Origin: a virus | Taxonomy: Duplodnaviria; Heunggongvirae; Uroviricota; Caudoviricetes | IMG/VR virus record: IMGVR_UViG_2684622552_000005 | Span: 1 to 5,644 of that record | Length of the DNA stretch: 5,644 nt | Strand: one strand, 5' to 3' | Part shown: in pieces, positions 1 to 5,644 of the stretch | Layout: the number at the start of each line of letters is the position of its first letter | Position numbering within the stretch: the stretch's first letter is position 1 | Notes under the pieces: model-generated | What the model was told of the DNA's origin: nothing | The model's input: only the letters and a program-made list of their open reading frames with translations | Database searches by the model: none | Position numbers and translations under genes: made by a program

Positions 1-568
1 TATCGCGTCCTCAACAATGAGTTTTGTGATGCGGTGCCTGGTGCCTCCAGGTGACGTTAACCAGTTAACAATTAACGCCGGATACAGAGAATCCACCCAT
101 AACACTGTTTTTGGTTTTAACTGTTCCGCGTGCGCTTAGCCGCATTCACCGCATCACAAAATTCACTTTAAAAAGGGCGGCAGAGCAGTCACGGAGTAAA
201 ACTGATACCGCCAAACGTCACCAGAAAATTGATAACAGAGGGCGTTGCAGCGGGGTTGTCACTTAAGCGTATGGTCAACCTGACAACCCGGTGTCCTCAA
301 CGGGGGAAGGAATAACCCCGCCATACTTACCGCCGCGCCATTTCGCGGATTGCCACAACCGGAAGCGCACGGTCGACGAAAATTTAACGACAGGCTATCT
401 ATGAACCAGCTACCTCGCCGTGCGCTTTCGCGTTATGGTCTGACTTTTCAGGGAAATATCCTTTCAGTAAACTGTCAGTGCCGGATGCTCACCCGTGTCC
501 GGCGCACGCACTCCACCTCACCCGTGGAGAACTCCTTAATTACCAACCTTAGCTTCGTTGGTTAGCTA

Positions 569-787
569 TTAACGCGGGTATGTAATCATTCTGGCAATGC
601 TTAATGCCGCTGCTTTTTCCAGATTGGTGATATCCTGCTCCAGAGAGGACAGATTTTCAGCCTGCTTAGCCCTGGCTTCATTGGCCCATTTCAGATCCTG
701 CGCTGCATTAATTTTCTGGTGCATCCACTCATAAAGTTCATCATCGGTATAGTCTGGCGCGATGATGACGGGTTCTCGTTTCTGCAT
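569..787 (-). CDS. Hypothetical small prophage early-left protein (72 aa)
   Basis: ATG-initiated ORF (plus-strand cat at 785-787); GAGGAA Shine-Dalgarno 5 nt upstream on the minus strand; co-oriented with and downstream of two other small ORFs and the repressor gene. No recognisable motif. Confidence 0.5.
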   Translation of the reverse strand: MQKREPVIIAPDYTDDELYEWMHQKINAAQDLKWANEARAKQAENLSSLEQDITNLEKAAALSIARMITYPR

Positions 788-816
788 ACTGATTCCTCGC
801 GGTGCTGTTTCGCTTA

Positions 817-945
817 TCAGCCGTTAGATTTTGCCGAACTGGAAAGCGCCTGTTTAAATTCGTTGAAGCTGAGAGCTTCTTCGCCTTCGGCAAGACCTTC
901 GAAGTATTCTTCGTAAGCCTTTTCCATGATTGTGTCGAAATCCAT
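817..945 (-). CDS. Hypothetical small acidic protein (42 aa), apparently translationally coupled to the upstream ORF
   Basis: Not in the ORF track (below its length cutoff). Hand translation: MDFDTIMEKAYEEYFEGLAEGEEALSFNEFKQALSSSAKSNG. ATG at 943-945 lies 1 nt after the TGA of ORF 947-1183 (TGAtATG); AGGTGA Shine-Dalgarno 5 nt upstream. The frame stays open upstream to about 1018, so a frameshifted remnant of a longer gene is an alternative. Confidence 0.35.
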   Translation of the reverse strand: MDFDTIMEKAYEEYFEGLAEGEEALSFNEFKQALSSSAKSNG

Positions 946-946
946 A

Positions 947-1183
947 TCACTCACCTGAGTTTCTTTCCAGCCAGCGACGGGCACCATTTTCGGTTTTAAA
1001 CGTTTTGCTTTTGGTATACGTCATCGCGGTGAACGTACCGTCCTGGTTGGGGAACACGCCACATACCAGAGATTCGCTGTTGCCAAGATCGATAGTATCC
1101 ATGCTGACCTCATTTCCCCTTAACGCCGGGGTAGCGGAACAAAAACCTGCTGCATAGTTATTAAAGTTGAACCCTGCCGTCAT
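947..1183 (-). CDS. Hypothetical small prophage protein (78 aa), first gene of the leftward operon
   Basis: ATG-initiated ORF (cat at 1181-1183) with GAGG about 9 nt upstream; lies directly downstream (leftward) of the putative OL/PL region. No recognisable motif. Confidence 0.5.
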   Translation of the reverse strand: MTAGFNFNNYAAGFCSATPALRGNEVSMDTIDLGNSESLVCGVFPNQDGTFTAMTYTKSKTFKTENGARRWLERNSGE

Positions 1184-1288
1184 GTTCTTACGCCTCGGGC
1201 TGGCTACTTAACCCCTGACCACTGCCTGGTAACTCGAAGTATTGCCCTGCATTCTGTGGGGCGGGGTGGGTTGGTATGAAAAGAAGGA

Positions 1289-1325
1289 TACCCATAGGTA
1301 TTTAAAAAGTAAATACCCATGGGTA
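1289..1325. promoter_or_regulatory. Putative OL: two 12-bp palindromic operator sites (TACCCATAGGTA at 1289-1300; perfect palindrome TACCCATGGGTA at 1314-1325), likely overlapping a leftward promoter
   Basis: Seen in sequence: two sites of the form TACC-N4-GGTA with centres 25 bp apart in the 185-bp gap between the repressor gene and the leftward small-gene operon. The same motif family recurs in the repressor/ydaS divergent region. Possible minus-strand -35 TTTACT / -10 TATCCT overlapping the sites (weak call). Confidence 0.5.
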
Positions 1326-1367
1326 ACTTTTTGCGATGTCTTAACTGGTGACTAGTTGTTTGGTGAG

Positions 1368-1787
1368 CTATGATGCGTTTTGTGCTTTCTTTTTACGGAT
1401 TTCTTCGTAGATCATATTGTAATACTGTTTTTTCTCTTCAAGAGTTTTTAATAATTTATCCGCTTCACTTTCTGGCAGTTCGTCTAAGAGATCTAAAAAA
1501 ATACGTTGTCGTGGCGTTAGAACCCTTGTTTCATAACTGGAGGCTGTGTTCGTTGATGATGAAACGATACCATCCATCCATCCCCGGGGTAACCCAAAGG
1601 ACTCTTCGATAATCTCCACCATATCATCAGCGATCCGTTTTTTTCCCTTTTTCCCCTCTGGGTACAACATTCTTGATACATAAGAAGGCTCGCGCCCGAT
1701 CTTTCTGGCCACGTTAACCGCTTTACCATCGCATTTCTCATCACGAATTTTGATGAGTTGCTGTCGTCTAAATTCATATTTGTCCAT
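1368..1787 (-). CDS. Prophage immunity repressor, HTH DNA-binding protein (CI / RacR-like functional analogue; no LexA-like peptidase domain)
   Basis: 139-aa ATG-initiated ORF. N-terminal segment (KAVNVARKIGREPSYVSRMLYPEGKKGKKRI) looks like a Cro/CI-type helix-turn-helix; the C-terminal half is charged and helical (likely dimerisation). Sits divergent from a Cro-like gene and between two operator clusters, the position of a lambdoid repressor. Confidence 0.75.
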   Translation of the reverse strand: MDKYEFRRQQLIKIRDEKCDGKAVNVARKIGREPSYVSRMLYPEGKKGKKRIADDMVEIIEESFGLPRGWMDGIVSSSTNTASSYETRVLTPRQRIFLDLLDELPESEADKLLKTLEEKKQYYNMIYEEIRKKKAQNAS

Positions 1788-1807
1788 AGGTAAATAATAG
1801 ATGCGAT

Positions 1808-1862
1808 TACCGCAAGGTAAACAACCTATGGGTATTGACTTTTGTTTACCTGTGGGTATTCT
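1808..1862. promoter_or_regulatory. Putative OR/PR: three operator-like sites (TACCGCAAGGTA 1808-1819; AACCTATGGGTA 1823-1834; TACCTGTGGGTA 1847-1858) overlapping a rightward sigma70-like promoter (-35 TTGACT 1835-1840, 16-bp spacer, -10 TATTCT 1857-1862)
   Basis: Seen in sequence. The sites share the TACC-N4-GGTA pattern with the OL sites. The promoter hexamers are positioned to drive ydaS (AAGGAG Shine-Dalgarno at 1877-1882, ATG at 1888). The three-site arrangement resembles lambda OR1-3. Confidence 0.5.
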
Positions 1863-1887
1863 TTGCTGTGTTTACTAAGGAGTAGCT

Positions 1888-2169
1888 ATGGAAGAATTAA
1901 GAATATTTCTCAATTCTCTTTCGTCAGATGAACAGCGTATGTTTGCATGCGAGTGTGGTACCAGCATCGGTTATCTAAGAAAGGCATTGAGTAAAGGTCA
2001 AGTGTTAGGGGCATCGTTATGTGTCCTTATTGAGCGAGCCAGTAATGGTGAAGTTACACGTCAGCAACTAAGGCCTTTTGATTGGATGAATATTTGGCCC
2101 GAGCTGGAAGATACCAAAACGTTAACACAACCACTTTCTAGGAGCTTGATTCATGAAAATCAAGCATGA
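1888..2169 (+). CDS. ydaS: YdaS-family Cro-like HTH regulator (93 aa)
   Basis: ATG with AAGGAG Shine-Dalgarno; divergent from the repressor. C-terminal motif IERASNGEVTRQQLRPFDW matches, from memory, the conserved IERAT.GEV...LRPD..W segment of Rac YdaS-family proteins. Its 3' end overlaps the start of the next gene by 17 nt. Confidence 0.7.
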   Translation: MEELRIFLNSLSSDEQRMFACECGTSIGYLRKALSKGQVLGASLCVLIERASNGEVTRQQLRPFDWMNIWPELEDTKTLTQPLSRSLIHENQA

Positions 2170-2578
2170 ACACATCCGCATGGCGATGAATGCCTGGGCG
2201 CATCCGGACGGTGAAAAAGTTCCGGCAGCTGAAATAACCAGGGCTTATTTTGAACTGGGTATGACGTTCCCAGAACTGTATGACGACAGCCATCCGGAAG
2301 CCCTGGCTCGCAATACCCAGAAAATTTTCCGCTGGGTAGAGAAAGACACCCCTGATGCAGTTGAAAAAATTCAGGCGTTGTTACCAGCGATCGAAAAGGC
2401 AATGCCACCTTTGCTGGTGGCCAGAATGCGCAGCCACAGTTCAGCTTATTTTCGGGAGCTGGTGGAGACGCGGGAGCGACTGGTGAGAGATGCTGATGAT
2501 TTTGTCGCAGTGGCAATCGCCGGTTTCAATCAGATGAACCGTGGTGGCCCGGCAGGAAATGCTGTGGCAGTGCATTGA
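2153..2578 (+). CDS. ydaT: YdaT-family protein (141 aa), CII-like regulator / reported toxic component of the Rac ydaS-ydaT module
   Basis: Starts MKIKHEHI, as I recall for E. coli Rac YdaT. AGGAG Shine-Dalgarno 8 nt upstream. Overlaps the ydaS stop, indicating co-transcription. Family assignment is from memory and positional context, not a search. Confidence 0.7.
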   Translation: MKIKHEHIRMAMNAWAHPDGEKVPAAEITRAYFELGMTFPELYDDSHPEALARNTQKIFRWVEKDTPDAVEKIQALLPAIEKAMPPLLVARMRSHSSAYFRELVETRERLVRDADDFVAVAIAGFNQMNRGGPAGNAVAVH

Positions 2579-2649
2579 GTGATAATAGCCATATCGAATC
2601 GCTTCCGGCAACTCGTGAGTAAAAAGATTCGGTATCAGAAGAGGTGAGT

Positions 2650-3720
2650 ATGGCTAACGCCTGGCTCAGATTATGGCATGACATGCCAAATGACCCTAAG
2701 TGGCGAACAATTGCCAGGGTGTCAGGGCAGCCAATTGCAACAGTGATGGCAGTGTATATCCACCTCCTGGTGAGCGCGTCACGAAATGTCACGCGAGGTC
2801 ACATTGATGTCACGACAGAAGATTTGGCAAGTGCGCTCGACGTGACAGAAGAGGTAATTGATTCAATTTTGCAGACGATGCAGGGGCGGGTACTTGATGG
2901 TGATTTAATCACTGGATGGGAAAAACGCCAGGTGCTTAAAGAGGACAACGGTAATATTTCGCAAACCGCAAAATCTCCTGCAGAGCGCAAGAGGGCGCAG
3001 CGAGAGAGGGAAAGAAAGCGGGAACAAAATGGCGATTGTCACGGCGCGTCACGAAATGTCACGCACATGTCACGACGAGTCACGACAGATAAAGATACAG
3101 ATAAAGATACAGATCAAGAAGATCAAAACACTATGGTCCATGGCGTAAAAAACGCCACGAACCAGGCAGGGGATGTTCAGACCGTCAATCCTGGTCAGCC
3201 AGCAGGCACGACACCGGAAGCCGATTCAGCGTATGCGCTGAAAGCCGATTCGGGCGCTGTGCAGCAGGTGATGACCCAAAGGCCGGAACAATCACACCAA
3301 CTGCAGCAGCCTGAAGCCGATTCCGCCATTCAGCGGGAAGCCGATCGGGTAGTCCCGGAAAACACCGGGCTGTCTGTGGGACGAGTGGATTATCCGGATG
3401 TGTTCGAACAGGTCTGGCGGGAGTACCCGTTGCGTGCCGGAGCAAACCCGAAGAAATCCGCTTTCAGTGCCTGGAAGGCCAGATTACGCGAGGGGGTGCC
3501 ACCAGAGGCCATGCTGGATGGCGTGAGGCGTTACGCAAGATACTTGGCGGCTACCGGGAAAACGGGAACGGAATTTGTTCAGCGAGCGACGACGTTTTTT
3601 GGACCGGACCGGAATTTTGAGAACCCCTGGTTGCTCCCGGTAAGCGGCACGAACAACCAGCGTTGTGTGAATCATATTTCTGAACCGGATAACGAAATTC
3701 CGCCGGGCTTCAGGGGGTAA
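2650..3720 (+). CDS. Phage replication initiator-like protein (lambda O-like organisation) with iterons inside the coding sequence
   Basis: The ORF track starts at GTG 2644; ATG 2650 with GAGG 5 nt upstream is the more likely start. The C-terminal region (VFEQVWREYPLRAGANPKKSAFSAWKARL...FVQRATTFFGPDRNFENPW) resembles the conserved C-terminal domain of phage replication proteins. Two clusters of GTCACG repeats and an AT-rich repeat lie within the gene. It occupies the position after cro/cII analogues. Confidence 0.7.
   Translation: MANAWLRLWHDMPNDPKWRTIARVSGQPIATVMAVYIHLLVSASRNVTRGHIDVTTEDLASALDVTEEVIDSILQTMQGRVLDGDLITGWEKRQVLKEDNGNISQTAKSPAERKRAQRERERKREQNGDCHGASRNVTHMSRRVTTDKDTDKDTDQEDQNTMVHGVKNATNQAGDVQTVNPGQPAGTTPEADSAYALKADSGAVQQVMTQRPEQSHQLQQPEADSAIQREADRVVPENTGLSVGRVDYPDVFEQVWREYPLRAGANPKKSAFSAWKARLREGVPPEAMLDGVRRYARYLAATGKTGTEFVQRATTFFGPDRNFENPWLLPVSGTNNQRCVNHISEPDNEIPPGFRG
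2778..2814. repeat. Iteron cluster 1: four copies of GTCAC(G/A) at 10-11 bp spacing (2778, 2788, 2798, 2809)
   Basis: Seen in sequence: cgTCACGaaatgTCACGcgaggTCACAttgatgTCACGacag. Helical-turn periodicity is typical of initiator-binding iterons. Confidence 0.55.
3038..3110. repeat. Iteron cluster 2 (five GTCACG copies at 3038, 3048, 3058, 3069, 3079) followed by a tandem AGATAAAGATAC x2 AT-rich repeat (3087-3110): putative prophage replication origin
   Basis: Seen in sequence. The first 21 bp of this cluster (gcgcgtcacgaaatgtcacgc) are identical to the start of cluster 1, about 270 bp upstream. An iteron array plus adjacent A+T-rich tract inside the initiator gene mirrors ori-lambda inside gene O. 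Confidence 0.55.
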
Positions 3721-3760
3721 GTGTTAATTTCTGGTCATGAGGTAATTTTCAGGAGGGCTT

Positions 3761-4186
3761 GTGGCAAAAGTTTTTACACAAGAAGAGCGGGAAAAAATTA
3801 AAGGGCAGGTTGTTGAACTCGTACGCCAGAGTGGGCGCGAGACGTTACGACAACTGGAAACTAAAACTGGGGCAACAAGATATCTGATGAGCGTTCTGGC
3901 CAGAGAGCTGGTTGCCAGTGGCGATGTATACAACTCTGGTTACGGGTTATTCCCGTCTGAACAGGCGCGTAAGGACTGGCAAAATGCCCGTAAAAAGCTC
4001 TCAAGGGCAAAGCTGAAGAAACCATCTGCGGTTGATCCGGACCTTATCTGGTCATTACCTGACGGAGAAATACGTCGCTACGATAGTTGTCTAAACATAA
4101 TCTGTCGCGAGTGCCGGAAGAGCGAAGTTATGCAGCGCATTCTGGCATTTTATCAGGGAAATGTTAGGTATTTTAGACGTTACTAG
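3761..4186 (+). CDS. Hypothetical protein (141 aa) of unknown function in the slot where a helicase loader is expected
   Basis: GTG start with a strong AGGAGG Shine-Dalgarno 4 nt upstream, 40 nt after the initiator gene. No Walker A motif seen. Contains a C-x4-C-x2-C cluster (CLNIICRECRK). Composition resembles the flanking phage genes, not the AT-rich gene downstream. Confidence 0.55.
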   Translation: MAKVFTQEEREKIKGQVVELVRQSGRETLRQLETKTGATRYLMSVLARELVASGDVYNSGYGLFPSEQARKDWQNARKKLSRAKLKKPSAVDPDLIWSLPDGEIRRYDSCLNIICRECRKSEVMQRILAFYQGNVRYFRRY

Positions 4187-4276
4187 ATTAAAGGGCATTA
4201 GTTCAGATATGCATTGACATTTTCATGGCACAAGGTAGAGCTAGCGTGGTTGTTCGCTTTGTGCCAAGAGTGGTCA

Positions 4277-4372
4277 TTGATAATATTTGGGTGGGTTACA
4301 TCTGTCAATGTTTCAGGTGATATGATATACAAATAGCCAGACTTAGACTGGCATGCTGTTTATTTTTATATT
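4277..4372 (+). promoter_or_regulatory. Candidate promoter(s) for the AT-rich cargo gene: extended -10 TGaTATGAT (4318-4326) and/or -35 TAGACT (4344-4349) with 17-bp spacer and -10 TATATT (4367-4372)
   Basis: Seen in sequence within a 215-bp AT-rich noncoding stretch between the stop at 4186 and the cargo gene start. Hexamer matches are by eye and not supported experimentally. Confidence 0.3.
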
Positions 4373-4413
4373 ATGGGTGTGCCACATGGATTTAAAACTT
4401 ATTGAGATATGAC

Positions 4414-5439
4414 ATGGATACTTTTCATAATATTTTGCTTGAGCACATAGACAGCCTTTTAAAAGAGAGACTTGATTTATCTGGTGACGCTGATATCGAA
4501 AAAGAAATTAATAACCTAATTCCCAAAATAGCCATTGTCGTTAAAAAATCTCTTATTGGCTCGGCCAATGCAATGCTTAGAGAACATCGTTCTCTTTGTG
4601 ATGAATTTGTTGAGAGAAATATTTCAAGATGGGCAGAGGCTTTTGATTTGCTCGAAACACTTATAGTGATATGCACGGAGTCCGGTGAAGAGTTCAATCG
4701 TTCTTATAGACCACAAGCTGCCTCTGAAGAGGATGTGGTTTTTGATTTAGTCGTTCGGCATCACGCAAGAGCTTGCCACATCGCCAACGAAATTTTGTGT
4801 CTCTTAAAGAATGGATTTGCAGATGCTGCCCAAGCGAGATGGCGAGCACTTCATGAGGTAGCGGCCACAGCTATGTTTATAGCAAAGCATGGAAAAGAGT
4901 GTGCTGAGCGCTTTTACTACCATGAAGTGGTTGATTCATATACTGGAATGTTGGAACACAAAAAGTACGAGCACCGGTTAGAAGCAAAAGGTCCAACTAT
5001 TGAAGAAATAGCTGAGTGTAAAGTTCAATTTGATCTATTAATAAAAAAATACGGCAAAAAATATGCAGATAATTATGGGTGGGCATCTTATATTTTCCCT
5101 AACCATAATAAAGTGGGGTTTGGAGCTATTGAGAAAGATGTTCAGTTAGAACACATGCGCCCTTATTATAAGTGGGCGAGTCAGAATGTACACACCGGTT
5201 CCAAGGCAATGAGAAATAGGCTTGGTCTCTGTGAAACTGGTGATGATATATTATTGGTCGGGCAAAGTGATTCAGGAATGGCTGATCCAGCCCATGCTAC
5301 TGCTATTAGTTTGATGCAGATTACTGTGACACTTTTATTCTTAAAACCAACCATTGATCATGCCGTCATTTCAAAAATAATACAGGATTATTCTGATGAG
5401 ATTGGAAATGTATTTCTTAAAATTGATAAGGGTAATTAA
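4414..5439 (+). CDS. AT-rich cargo ORF of unknown function (about 341 aa from ATG 4414; the track start at 4402 is a TTG); candidate accessory / anti-phage protein
   Basis: Long uninterrupted ORF whose base composition is visibly more A+T-rich than the flanking prophage genes. It has its own upstream noncoding region. No transmembrane stretch, P-loop or other recognisable catalytic motif was seen by eye. One R-x6-H segment (RHHARACH, about 4756-4779) is noted only as a weak HEPN-like hint. It lies between the replication module and an IS element, a typical prophage moron/defence-island position. Confidence 0.75.
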   Translation: MDTFHNILLEHIDSLLKERLDLSGDADIEKEINNLIPKIAIVVKKSLIGSANAMLREHRSLCDEFVERNISRWAEAFDLLETLIVICTESGEEFNRSYRPQAASEEDVVFDLVVRHHARACHIANEILCLLKNGFADAAQARWRALHEVAATAMFIAKHGKECAERFYYHEVVDSYTGMLEHKKYEHRLEAKGPTIEEIAECKVQFDLLIKKYGKKYADNYGWASYIFPNHNKVGFGAIEKDVQLEHMRPYYKWASQNVHTGSKAMRNRLGLCETGDDILLVGQSDSGMADPAHATAISLMQITVTLLFLKPTIDHAVISKIIQDYSDEIGNVFLKIDKGN

Positions 5440-5518
5440 AAATTGGAAAAGTGATAGTATATTCTTGTTTTTTTTACTGGTAATTAAATGTTTTTAAAGT
5501 TACTAGTTCACACCTATC

Positions 5519-5644
5519 TGAATCGCCACGGGTTTAACAGACACCTCAGAGTCATTTAAGATGGCTTAAAGAGAGGTGCCCATGAGCGGTAAGCGTTATC
5601 CCGAAGAGTTTAAAACTGAAGCAGTCAAACAGGTTGTTGCTCAA
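5519..5644 (+). mobile_element. Left end of an IS3-family insertion sequence (putative left inverted repeat starting TGAATCGCCACGGGTTT at 5519), truncated by the window edge
   Basis: Begins with TG and is GC-rich, like IS3-family terminal repeats as I recall them. It lies 63 bp upstream of an OrfA-like start preceded by AGAGAGGTG, similar to the spacing and Shine-Dalgarno context I recall for IS3. Exact boundary is uncertain; the right end is not in the window. Confidence 0.55.
5582..5644 (+). CDS. IS3-family transposase OrfA, N-terminal fragment (continues beyond the window)
   Basis: Hand translation MSGKRYPEEFKTEAVKQVVAQ matches the characteristic N-terminus of IS3-family OrfA proteins (K-R-x-[YF]-x-x-E-F-K-x-E-A-V). 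ATG at 5582 with a GAGAGGTG Shine-Dalgarno upstream. Confidence 0.65.
   Translation, partial: MSGKRYPEEFKTEAVKQVVAQ

Follow-up and report, generated by a model that had tools for sequence, protein, structure and literature searches.

A loader-less replication module followed by a Ren-like DUF977 gene in a lambdoid prophage of Escherichia coli

The early region of an Escherichia coli lambdoid prophage of the Qin/Rac type is found in a 5,644-nucleotide stretch of Caudoviricetes DNA (IMG/VR record IMGVR_UViG_2684622552_000005, positions 1 to 5,644). This whole stretch is termed the window here. It includes the early-right operon, in which a replication initiator gene (2644-3720, plus strand) is followed by an open reading frame of 141 amino acids (3761-4186, plus strand). 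An initial annotation of this DNA pointed out that no gene for a DnaC-like or lambda P-like helicase loader follows the initiator, and it took the replication module to be incomplete and the prophage to be possibly replication-defective. The loader gene is indeed absent. The combination of an initiator without a loader and a DUF977 gene is, however, a standard variant of lambdoid replication modules, and on sequence grounds the 141-amino-acid open reading frame is an ordinary, complete and already catalogued phage protein of the DUF977/Ren-like type. The module is probably a complete, 'initiator-only' one that uses the host DnaB-DnaC complex.

The open reading frame starts with a GTG codon, and a Shine-Dalgarno sequence, AGGAGG (3751-3756, plus strand, read directly from the sequence), lies 4 nt before it. 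The coding sequence 3761-4186 is likewise annotated by RefSeq in an E. coli prophage that is 99.3% identical to the window. The list of open reading frames, the AGGAGG site and this RefSeq annotation all agree with the initial description of a short gene next after the initiator. The span described began at 3721, which is the first base past the initiator stop codon TAA (3718-3720); the open reading frame itself starts at 3761. The Walker A motif [AG]xxxxGK[ST] is absent from the 141-amino-acid protein, as had been noted, and is also absent from the initiator.

A profile search of the protein, which had been proposed as a check, places it in a known family. Pfam DUF977 (PF06163) matches with an E value of 9e-29 and 100.7 bits (cutoff 22.1), and residues 1-135 align to positions 1-133 of the 134 positions of the model. 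PHROG 142, 'Ren-like exclusion protein', matches at 8.4e-46, and PHROG 2391, 'DNA binding protein', covers residues 1-81. The protein is thus a full-length member of Pfam DUF977 ('LygF') with no substantive difference from it; phage records label DUF977 proteins either LygF or Ren-like exclusion protein. The family is small: clustering at 50% identity leaves 101 representatives, and many of these are fragments. Identity to the protein is 88-96% for the 120 best-scoring database matches listed. DNA that resembles the DUF977 gene is present in 4080 of 5426 complete E. coli genomes. This and the other genome counts given below are based on megablast coverage thresholds over these 5426 genomes, and they include prophages of unknown viability.

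The protein had been viewed as a possible remnant or a novel factor. Neither term fits a protein that spans nearly the whole Pfam model and that falls in DUF977/PHROG 142 as a homolog of lambda Ren, but 'accessory factor', also suggested, stays a fair description. A pseudogene is ruled out by the full-length profile match, the intact ribosome-binding site and the high identity of the 120 best matches listed. Two other identities were considered and dropped. YdaW of the K-12 Rac prophage, a candidate homolog, displays no similarity to the protein by BLASTP. A defence-system identity was sought for the DUF977 protein, for the initiator and for the DUF5677 protein encoded further downstream, and none of the three has a PADLOC match. 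A mosaic boundary is present at ∼4150-4165, as similarity to Rac-SA53, 75/02 and HannyBb ends 20-35 nt before the DUF977 stop codon. The last ∼8 residues of the protein therefore differ from those of its DUF977 relatives.

Structure prediction had also been called for. The AlphaFold2 model of the 141-amino-acid protein has a mean pLDDT (predicted local distance difference test) score of 79.8, with values above 90 for residues ∼10-70. In the modelled topology an N-terminal winged helix (residues ∼7-65) is followed by a long helix, and a linker of poor definition separates this from short helices at the C-terminus. Fold searches of PDB and BFVD with this model, and profile searches, return only generic winged helix-turn-helix proteins (MarR, ArsR, GntR and Z-alpha), the fold matches at E values above 0.003; none of the matches is significant and none is a loader.

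The C-terminal end of the protein displays the motif N112-x-x-C115-x-E-C118-R-x-S-x-x-M-x-R-x-L-A-F-Y, and it conforms to the DUF977 motif N-x-[IV]-C-x-E-C-R-x-S-x-x-M-x-R-[IV]-L-A-F-Y. Among 15 diverse family members N112, C118 and R119 are invariant, and C115, E117, S121, M124, R126 and F130 are at least 90% conserved. The protein has three cysteines, at 110, 115 and 118, and no histidines. The cysteine cluster CxxxxCxxC of the initial annotation is therefore present in that spacing, but only its CxxC portion is conserved: Cys110 is not conserved in the family alignment and is lineage-specific, and the Cys115 position is Phe in lambda Ren. A zinc ribbon or finger with four Cys/His ligands in one chain was considered and rejected, C115 and C118 being the sole conserved ligands. 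Because there are only two conserved cysteines and no histidine, a self-contained zinc site is unlikely. An inter-subunit site formed by two CxxC pairs may be possible.

Homology to the 96-amino-acid Ren protein of phage lambda was detected in two ways. In hhalign, a profile of 19 DUF977 members aligns with Ren over 75 columns (94.7%, E value 5.6e-8), and the aligned part includes the C-terminal motif as well as the helix-turn-helix segment. In BLASTP, the 141-amino-acid protein matches Ren with an E value of 2e-6 across the C-terminal 20 residues, NIICRECRKSEVMQRILAFY vs NLVFKECRQSAAMKRVLAVY. The two proteins, both in PHROG 142, have in common the helix-turn-helix segment and the motif N-x-x-x-x-E-C-R-x-S-x-x-M-x-R-x-L-A-x-Y. 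There is also a likeness in gene position. The annotated lambda gene order is O-P-ren, with ren directly after the replication genes, and both ren and the 141-amino-acid open reading frame represent the first gene past the replication genes in the pR operon. The differences are that ren comes after P whereas the DUF977 gene comes directly after the initiator, that Ren has FxxC in place of CxxC, and that the 141-amino-acid protein exceeds Ren by 45 residues and has an additional helix and a basic linker that separate its winged helix from the C-terminal motif.

The Ren name and the PHROG label reportedly go back to work by Toothman and Herskowitz in 1980, in which lambda ren mutants are said to be sensitive to Rex exclusion. 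Lambda phages with the nin5 deletion are viable and show normal growth. The nin5 deletion comprises 40,503-43,307 (PMC3349717), and its start at 40,503 means that Ren residues 75-96, including the conserved motif, are removed.

Homologs of replication proteins were searched for by tblastn with E. coli DnaC, DnaB, Rac YdaV, lambda P and the DnaC-like protein of Shigella phage 75/02 Stx. None was found in the window, in a 45.5-kb stretch of the 99.3%-identical prophage, or in the phages Tritos and HannyBb; as a positive control, the DnaC-like gene of 75/02 was recovered at 7e-84. With lambda P, the best hit in the window, the intact relative, Tritos and HannyBb has an E value of 0.016, is not significant and lies within the portal gene region. 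The absence of a DnaC- or P-like loader gene after the initiator is thereby confirmed. The initial annotation had allowed for a DnaC/P homolog further downstream, and tblastn finds none in the 45.5-kb stretch, which reaches from the integrase to the tape measure gene.

The 141-amino-acid open reading frame was itself weighed as a loader and rejected. A DnaC/IstB-type AAA+ loader is excluded by the lack of a Walker A motif, of any AAA+ match in Pfam or NCBIfam and of a tblastn hit, and a lambda P-type loader by the lack of significant similarity to P. The DnaC-like (IstB/AAA+) loaders, such as Rac YdaV and 75/02 gp16, and lambda P have only their expected place in the gene order in common with this open reading frame. 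They show no sequence similarity to its product, and neither the window nor complete phages with this module encode them.

A comparison of synteny, a further check that had been proposed, shows that close relatives do carry a loader after the initiator. In 75/02 Stx (locus L007), a 1548-bp cassette of a DnaC-like and a DUF1627 gene extends from the initiator stop codon to the ribosome-binding site of DUF977. By blastn, window positions 3242-3720 correspond to L007 1962-2443 and positions 3752-4149 to L007 3992-4389, so that similarity runs to the initiator stop and restarts 9 bp before the DUF977 start. The C-terminal half of the initiator has 82% DNA identity between the two. In the window the place of the cassette is taken by a 31-bp junction (3721-3751). 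Rac-SA53 has a gene order similar to that of 75/02 (initiator, DnaC-like, DUF1627, DUF977). The DUF1627 genes are located at L007 3216-3986, L008 3223-3984 and L019 4237-5004, and the start of their products looks winged-helix-like; in L019 the gene occurs without a DnaC-like gene.

Phage Tritos carries the initiator and DUF977 block at 97% DNA identity to the window. In its 46-kb genome the initiator and DUF977 are the sole replication module, with no other replication gene. Tritos is reported to arise by spontaneous induction; it was purified from plaques and grown on MG1655 hsdR-, and its virions were seen by transmission electron microscopy (PMC9928086). As a plaque-forming phage carries the same module, the module in the window represents a common loader-less type and is not broken. 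The complete genome of phage HannyBb has a different initiator body with the same C-terminal tail and the same DUF977 neighbor, and no loader or helicase gene. Phages Evi and mEp460_ev081, whose early regions were examined, also have the order initiator then DUF977. With a 321-bp probe and at least 80% coverage, the direct initiator-DUF977 junction is found in at least 1551 of the 5426 complete E. coli genomes; a probe for the DUF1627-to-DUF977 junction is covered in 1989. The description of the module as incomplete or replication-defective is thus unsupported.

The neighborhoods of more distant DUF977 genes vary. The upstream neighbor can be a tailed initiator without a loader, a DnaC-like gene, or a DnaT-domain initiator and a DUF1627 gene with no DnaC-like gene. 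Divergent DUF977 genes (35% identity; 5001-5405 in the P2-like loci L016-L018) are located directly after Exonuclease VIII, in elements that encode the rolling-circle protein GPA and no adjoining theta-type initiator. These varied neighborhoods indicate that the DnaC-like gene is an optional cassette and that DUF977 can accompany more than one type of replication machinery.

The initiator, termed 'phage replisome organizer' in RefSeq, comprises 358 amino acids from its GTG start (356 from the ATG at 2650 that RefSeq uses). Its N-terminal part, for origin binding, is joined by an acidic linker of low complexity to a C-terminal domain that resembles the DnaT C-terminal domain and ends in a tail. 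The PHROG phrog_3729, 'replication initiation protein', matches at 1.8e-256, and phrog_1701, 'DnaD-like helicase loader', matches residues 124-358 at 1e-62; phrog_9327, 'primosomal protein', matches as well. The match to phrog_3729 and the presence of iterons identify the protein as O-like, or replisome organizer-like. The replisome organizer model TIGR01714 gives 15.4 bits against a cutoff of 49.8, and the N-terminal domain is therefore considered a distant relative of the replisome organizers.

The iterons are copies of GTCACG, found by a repeat search and given here for the plus strand. There are nine in the initiator gene and ten in the window, compared with 1.7 expected, and none of 200 shuffled sequences reaches ten. 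The first cluster (2778-2846) has three direct copies (2778, 2788, 2809) and, at 2798, a degenerate GTCACA, all within 2778-2814, as well as an inverted copy at 2841-2846. The second cluster (3038-3084), with five copies of GTCACG spaced 10-11 bp apart, is the probable origin core. Directly past it is an A-rich tandem repeat, two copies of ACAGATAAAGAT (3085-3108, plus strand), which encodes the linker TDKDTDKD and is a candidate unwinding region. Together, the clusters at 2778-2846 and 3038-3108 are predicted to be the probable origin of replication. By annotation ori-lambda is also situated within an initiator gene, gene O, as are the iterons and the A-rich repeat of the window, and by this analogy the repeat would have a role in unwinding.

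The tail of the initiator is encoded at 3643-3720 (plus strand; located by BLASTP and alignment). Its sequence, SGTNNQRCVNHISEPDNEIPPGFRG, is common to host DnaT and to other phage initiators. By BLASTP the tail is 60% identical to residues 155-179 of E. coli DnaT (E value 1e-7; final 25 residues SEPDNEIPPGFRG vs SEPDSQIPPGFRG), and it also matches Rac YdaU and the DnaT chains 6AEP, 2RU8 and 9ZBT in PDB. The last ∼85 residues of the initiator align with DnaT 111-179 in hhalign (95.9%, E value 6e-9). The likeness to DnaT thus comprises the C-terminal domain and a nearly identical tail, SEPDxxIPPGFRG. The initiator differs in that the DnaT N-terminal domain and linker are missing, and an iteron-binding 'replisome organizer' N-terminus is present instead. 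It is not an ortholog of DnaT; the full-length NCBIfam equivalog model for DnaT gives 19.2 bits against a cutoff of 201, with the tail alone aligned.

At least four unrelated phage initiator bodies end in the tail, R-x-VN-x-x-SEPD-x-x-IPPGFRG, and a DnaC-like gene may or may not follow downstream. The tail is found in Rac YdaU, in 75/02 gp15, in the lambda O-like initiator of HannyBb and in two more divergent initiators. The tailed initiators are encoded at L005 2620-3477, L007 1355-2443, L009 2995-3960, L013 3971-4978 and L014 4026-4988. Lambda O, which is P-dependent, does not have the tail. In E. coli, dnaT is directly upstream of dnaC, and in Rac ydaU is likewise upstream of the DnaC-like gene ydaV; a dnaC or dnaC-like gene is often the immediate downstream neighbor of a gene that encodes the tail. 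In HannyBb, similarity to the window begins within the part of the initiator gene that encodes the tail, at 3658. The tail and DUF977 move together as a unit in that lineage.

The region upstream of the replication module consists of immunity and early-regulator genes (1368-2578), assigned from Pfam and PHROG matches and the RefSeq annotation of the relative: a repressor (1368-1787, minus strand), a YdaS/Cro-like gene (1888-2169, plus strand) and a YdaT/CII-like gene (2153-2578, plus strand). The gene for the DicF antisense small RNA is present at 175-226 (minus strand) as a full-length Rfam match of 76.7 bits (gathering score 48), which is consistent with a Qin/DicB-type left arm of the prophage. 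At least 80% of the window length is matched in 71 complete E. coli genomes, and the best of these matches have 99.3% identity across window positions 1-5522. The 99.3%-identical prophage adjoins rspB. Its early-right order in RefSeq is repressor, YdaS/Cro-like, YdaT/CII-like, 'phage replisome organizer', DUF977, DUF5677, hokD, DUF968, RusA and Q. Lysis and structural genes come after these in the 99.3%-identical relatives.

Downstream of DUF977 there is a low-GC slot for cargo genes (4187-5506, plus strand). The initiator gene has a G + C content of 0.54 and the DUF977 open reading frame one of 0.47; the value drops to 0.38 in 4187-5439 and 0.21 in 5440-5506. A gene for a 345-amino-acid DUF5677 protein is located at 4402-5439 (plus strand; first TTG at 4402, RefSeq start at 4414; Pfam DUF5677 5.5e-34). 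From 5507 to 5644 is the end of an IS3-family insertion sequence, recognized by its matches to IS3-family ends. The A + T-rich cargo followed by an insertion sequence is thus as first described. The IS3-family end is absent from this site in the closest intact relatives, whose match to the window stops at 5522 and which continue toward hokD; several other relatives have an IS2 insertion elsewhere within the matched region. In other phages the slot after DUF977 is occupied by a 1335-nt reverse-strand gene (Tritos), a regulator and an acetyltransferase (Evi), or a methyltransferase (HannyBb). The presence of unrelated genes across phages marks the slot as a cargo hot spot.

The interpretation that we consider probable is that this is a complete 'initiator-only' module that uses the host DnaB-DnaC, followed by a Ren-like DUF977 accessory gene. 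The initiator would bind the GTCACG iterons inside its own gene, and its DnaT-like end would let it directly engage the helicase and loader of the host, DnaB-DnaC. A DnaC-like or P-like loader encoded by the phage would thereby be optional; with the host DnaB-DnaC reached through the DnaT-like end, a phage copy of DnaC would be dispensable. The DUF977 protein would stand outside helicase loading, as the product of the first accessory gene, at the start of the variable nin/cargo region. Weigel and Seitz are said to have described an 'initiator-solo' class of phage replication modules in 2006, in FEMS Microbiol Rev. Modules of this class reportedly have a single origin-binding initiator, an origin in or next to its gene, and use of the host helicase and loader; the module in the window resembles them and is placed with them by architecture alone. 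A more specific proposal is that loader-less initiators load DnaB by DnaT mimicry, with the C-terminal domain and tail, and not the N-terminal domain, as the handle for DnaC-DnaB. This is tentative and somewhat doubtful. A role of the neighboring DUF977 protein in modulating such a DnaT-mimic loading step, or in shielding it from exclusion systems, is less likely.

As nin5 cuts the Ren motif and DUF977 neighborhoods are so varied, an essential role of DUF977 in replication is unlikely. The DUF977 protein is most likely an early accessory protein that the phage can do without and that interacts with DNA or with another protein. By analogy with Ren, it may shield phage growth against the exclusion system of a resident prophage, and a Ren-like role, in anti-exclusion or of another accessory kind, would be in keeping with the homology.

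Several observations weigh against this interpretation. The tail is also present on initiators with a downstream phage DnaC-like gene (Rac YdaU and 75/02 gp15), so that the tail alone is no mark of loader independence. A 2026 cryo-electron microscopy paper favors the DnaT N-terminal domain as the recruiter, a domain that the phage initiator lacks, and describes the hand-over from DnaT to DnaB-DnaC as unknown (PMC13377028). DnaT residues 154-179 have a modest effect on the cooperativity of single-stranded DNA binding (PMC4132743), and no partner for these residues is identified in either paper. The AlphaFold2 model of the initiator C-terminus has a pLDDT of 46.6, and its pattern of helix and disorder alone was used, with caution; it was built from a three-sequence alignment. 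A homolog search with this region gave mostly fragments and frameshifted products, unusable as an alignment. The analogy to Ren is one of remote homology, with a BLASTP alignment limited to 20 residues. A preprint on lambda Ren reports its cotranscription with O and P and its two-hybrid contacts with RexA and RexB, and calls it 'likely involved in DNA replication'. No experimental or functional study on DUF977, LygF or Ren-like proteins was found in the literature, where the one paper that uses the term DUF977 has a different subject. Also, the window ends within the IS3-family element, which puts the downstream intactness of this particular prophage outside the view.

It appears improbable that the module is a deletion derivative that lost its DnaC-like loader, leaving a replication-defective, or cryptic, prophage. 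Such a loss could be read from the cassette of DnaC-like and DUF1627 genes that relatives carry exactly at the junction, together with the insertion sequence that interrupts the downstream region and the location of the late genes outside the window. Yet the loader-less module is the only one in plaque-forming Tritos, HannyBb likewise has only a loader-less module, the junction recurs in at least 1551 complete E. coli genomes, and the 99.3%-identical prophage with the same module is continuous from integrase to tape measure. Both the initiator and DUF977 frames are intact and full length, and the insertion sequence sits in the cargo slot, outside the replication genes. It is just as unlikely that the 141-amino-acid protein is a small replication factor, either a substitute for the loader or an adaptor for the DnaT-tailed initiator that acts, possibly, via a zinc-binding cysteine cluster. 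DUF977 is always in the early operon, usually right after the replication genes; in HannyBb it moves together with the tail-coding end of the initiator (the block from 3658), its CxxC pair is conserved, and the preprint links Ren to replication. However, the protein has neither AAA+ nor Walker motifs, and searches of Pfam, NCBIfam and PDB and by fold reveal no resemblance to DnaC, P, DnaD or P2 B-type loaders. DUF977 is found equally downstream of phage DnaC-like loaders, and also in P2-like rolling-circle elements beside Exonuclease VIII. Moreover, nin5 deletes the conserved C-terminal motif of Ren, and with two conserved ligands a zinc site would require dimerization.

In a third reading the 141-amino-acid protein has no part in replication or exclusion; as a winged-helix protein it would regulate transcription of the downstream nin/cargo region or of host genes. 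The winged helix is confidently modelled, the closest structures are repressors (MarR, ArsR, GntR and IclR), PHROG 2391 matches the N-terminal 81 residues, and the gene is located just upstream of the variable cargo slot with its promoter-like sites. We regard this reading too as having only a slim chance of being correct. The fold matches, the best of which has a Foldseek E value of 0.02, are generic and weak, winged helices mediate protein contacts as well, and the cargo downstream varies while DUF977 is conserved; in addition, the repeat search showed no conserved operator-like repeat beside the gene.

The family of the 141-amino-acid open reading frame is thus one already catalogued, and among lambdoid replication modules the 'missing' loader is normal variation. 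In annotation work, an initiator with no P-like or DnaC-like gene beside it should not be taken as a sign of a cryptic prophage, and the labels 'DUF977' and 'LygF' can be connected with lambda Ren. Several unrelated phage initiators bear a grafted DnaT C-terminal domain and tail, which provides a modest lead on how DnaT recruits DnaB-DnaC. If the DnaT mimicry proposed here is true, these phage initiators would point to the site by which DnaT recruits DnaB/DnaC.

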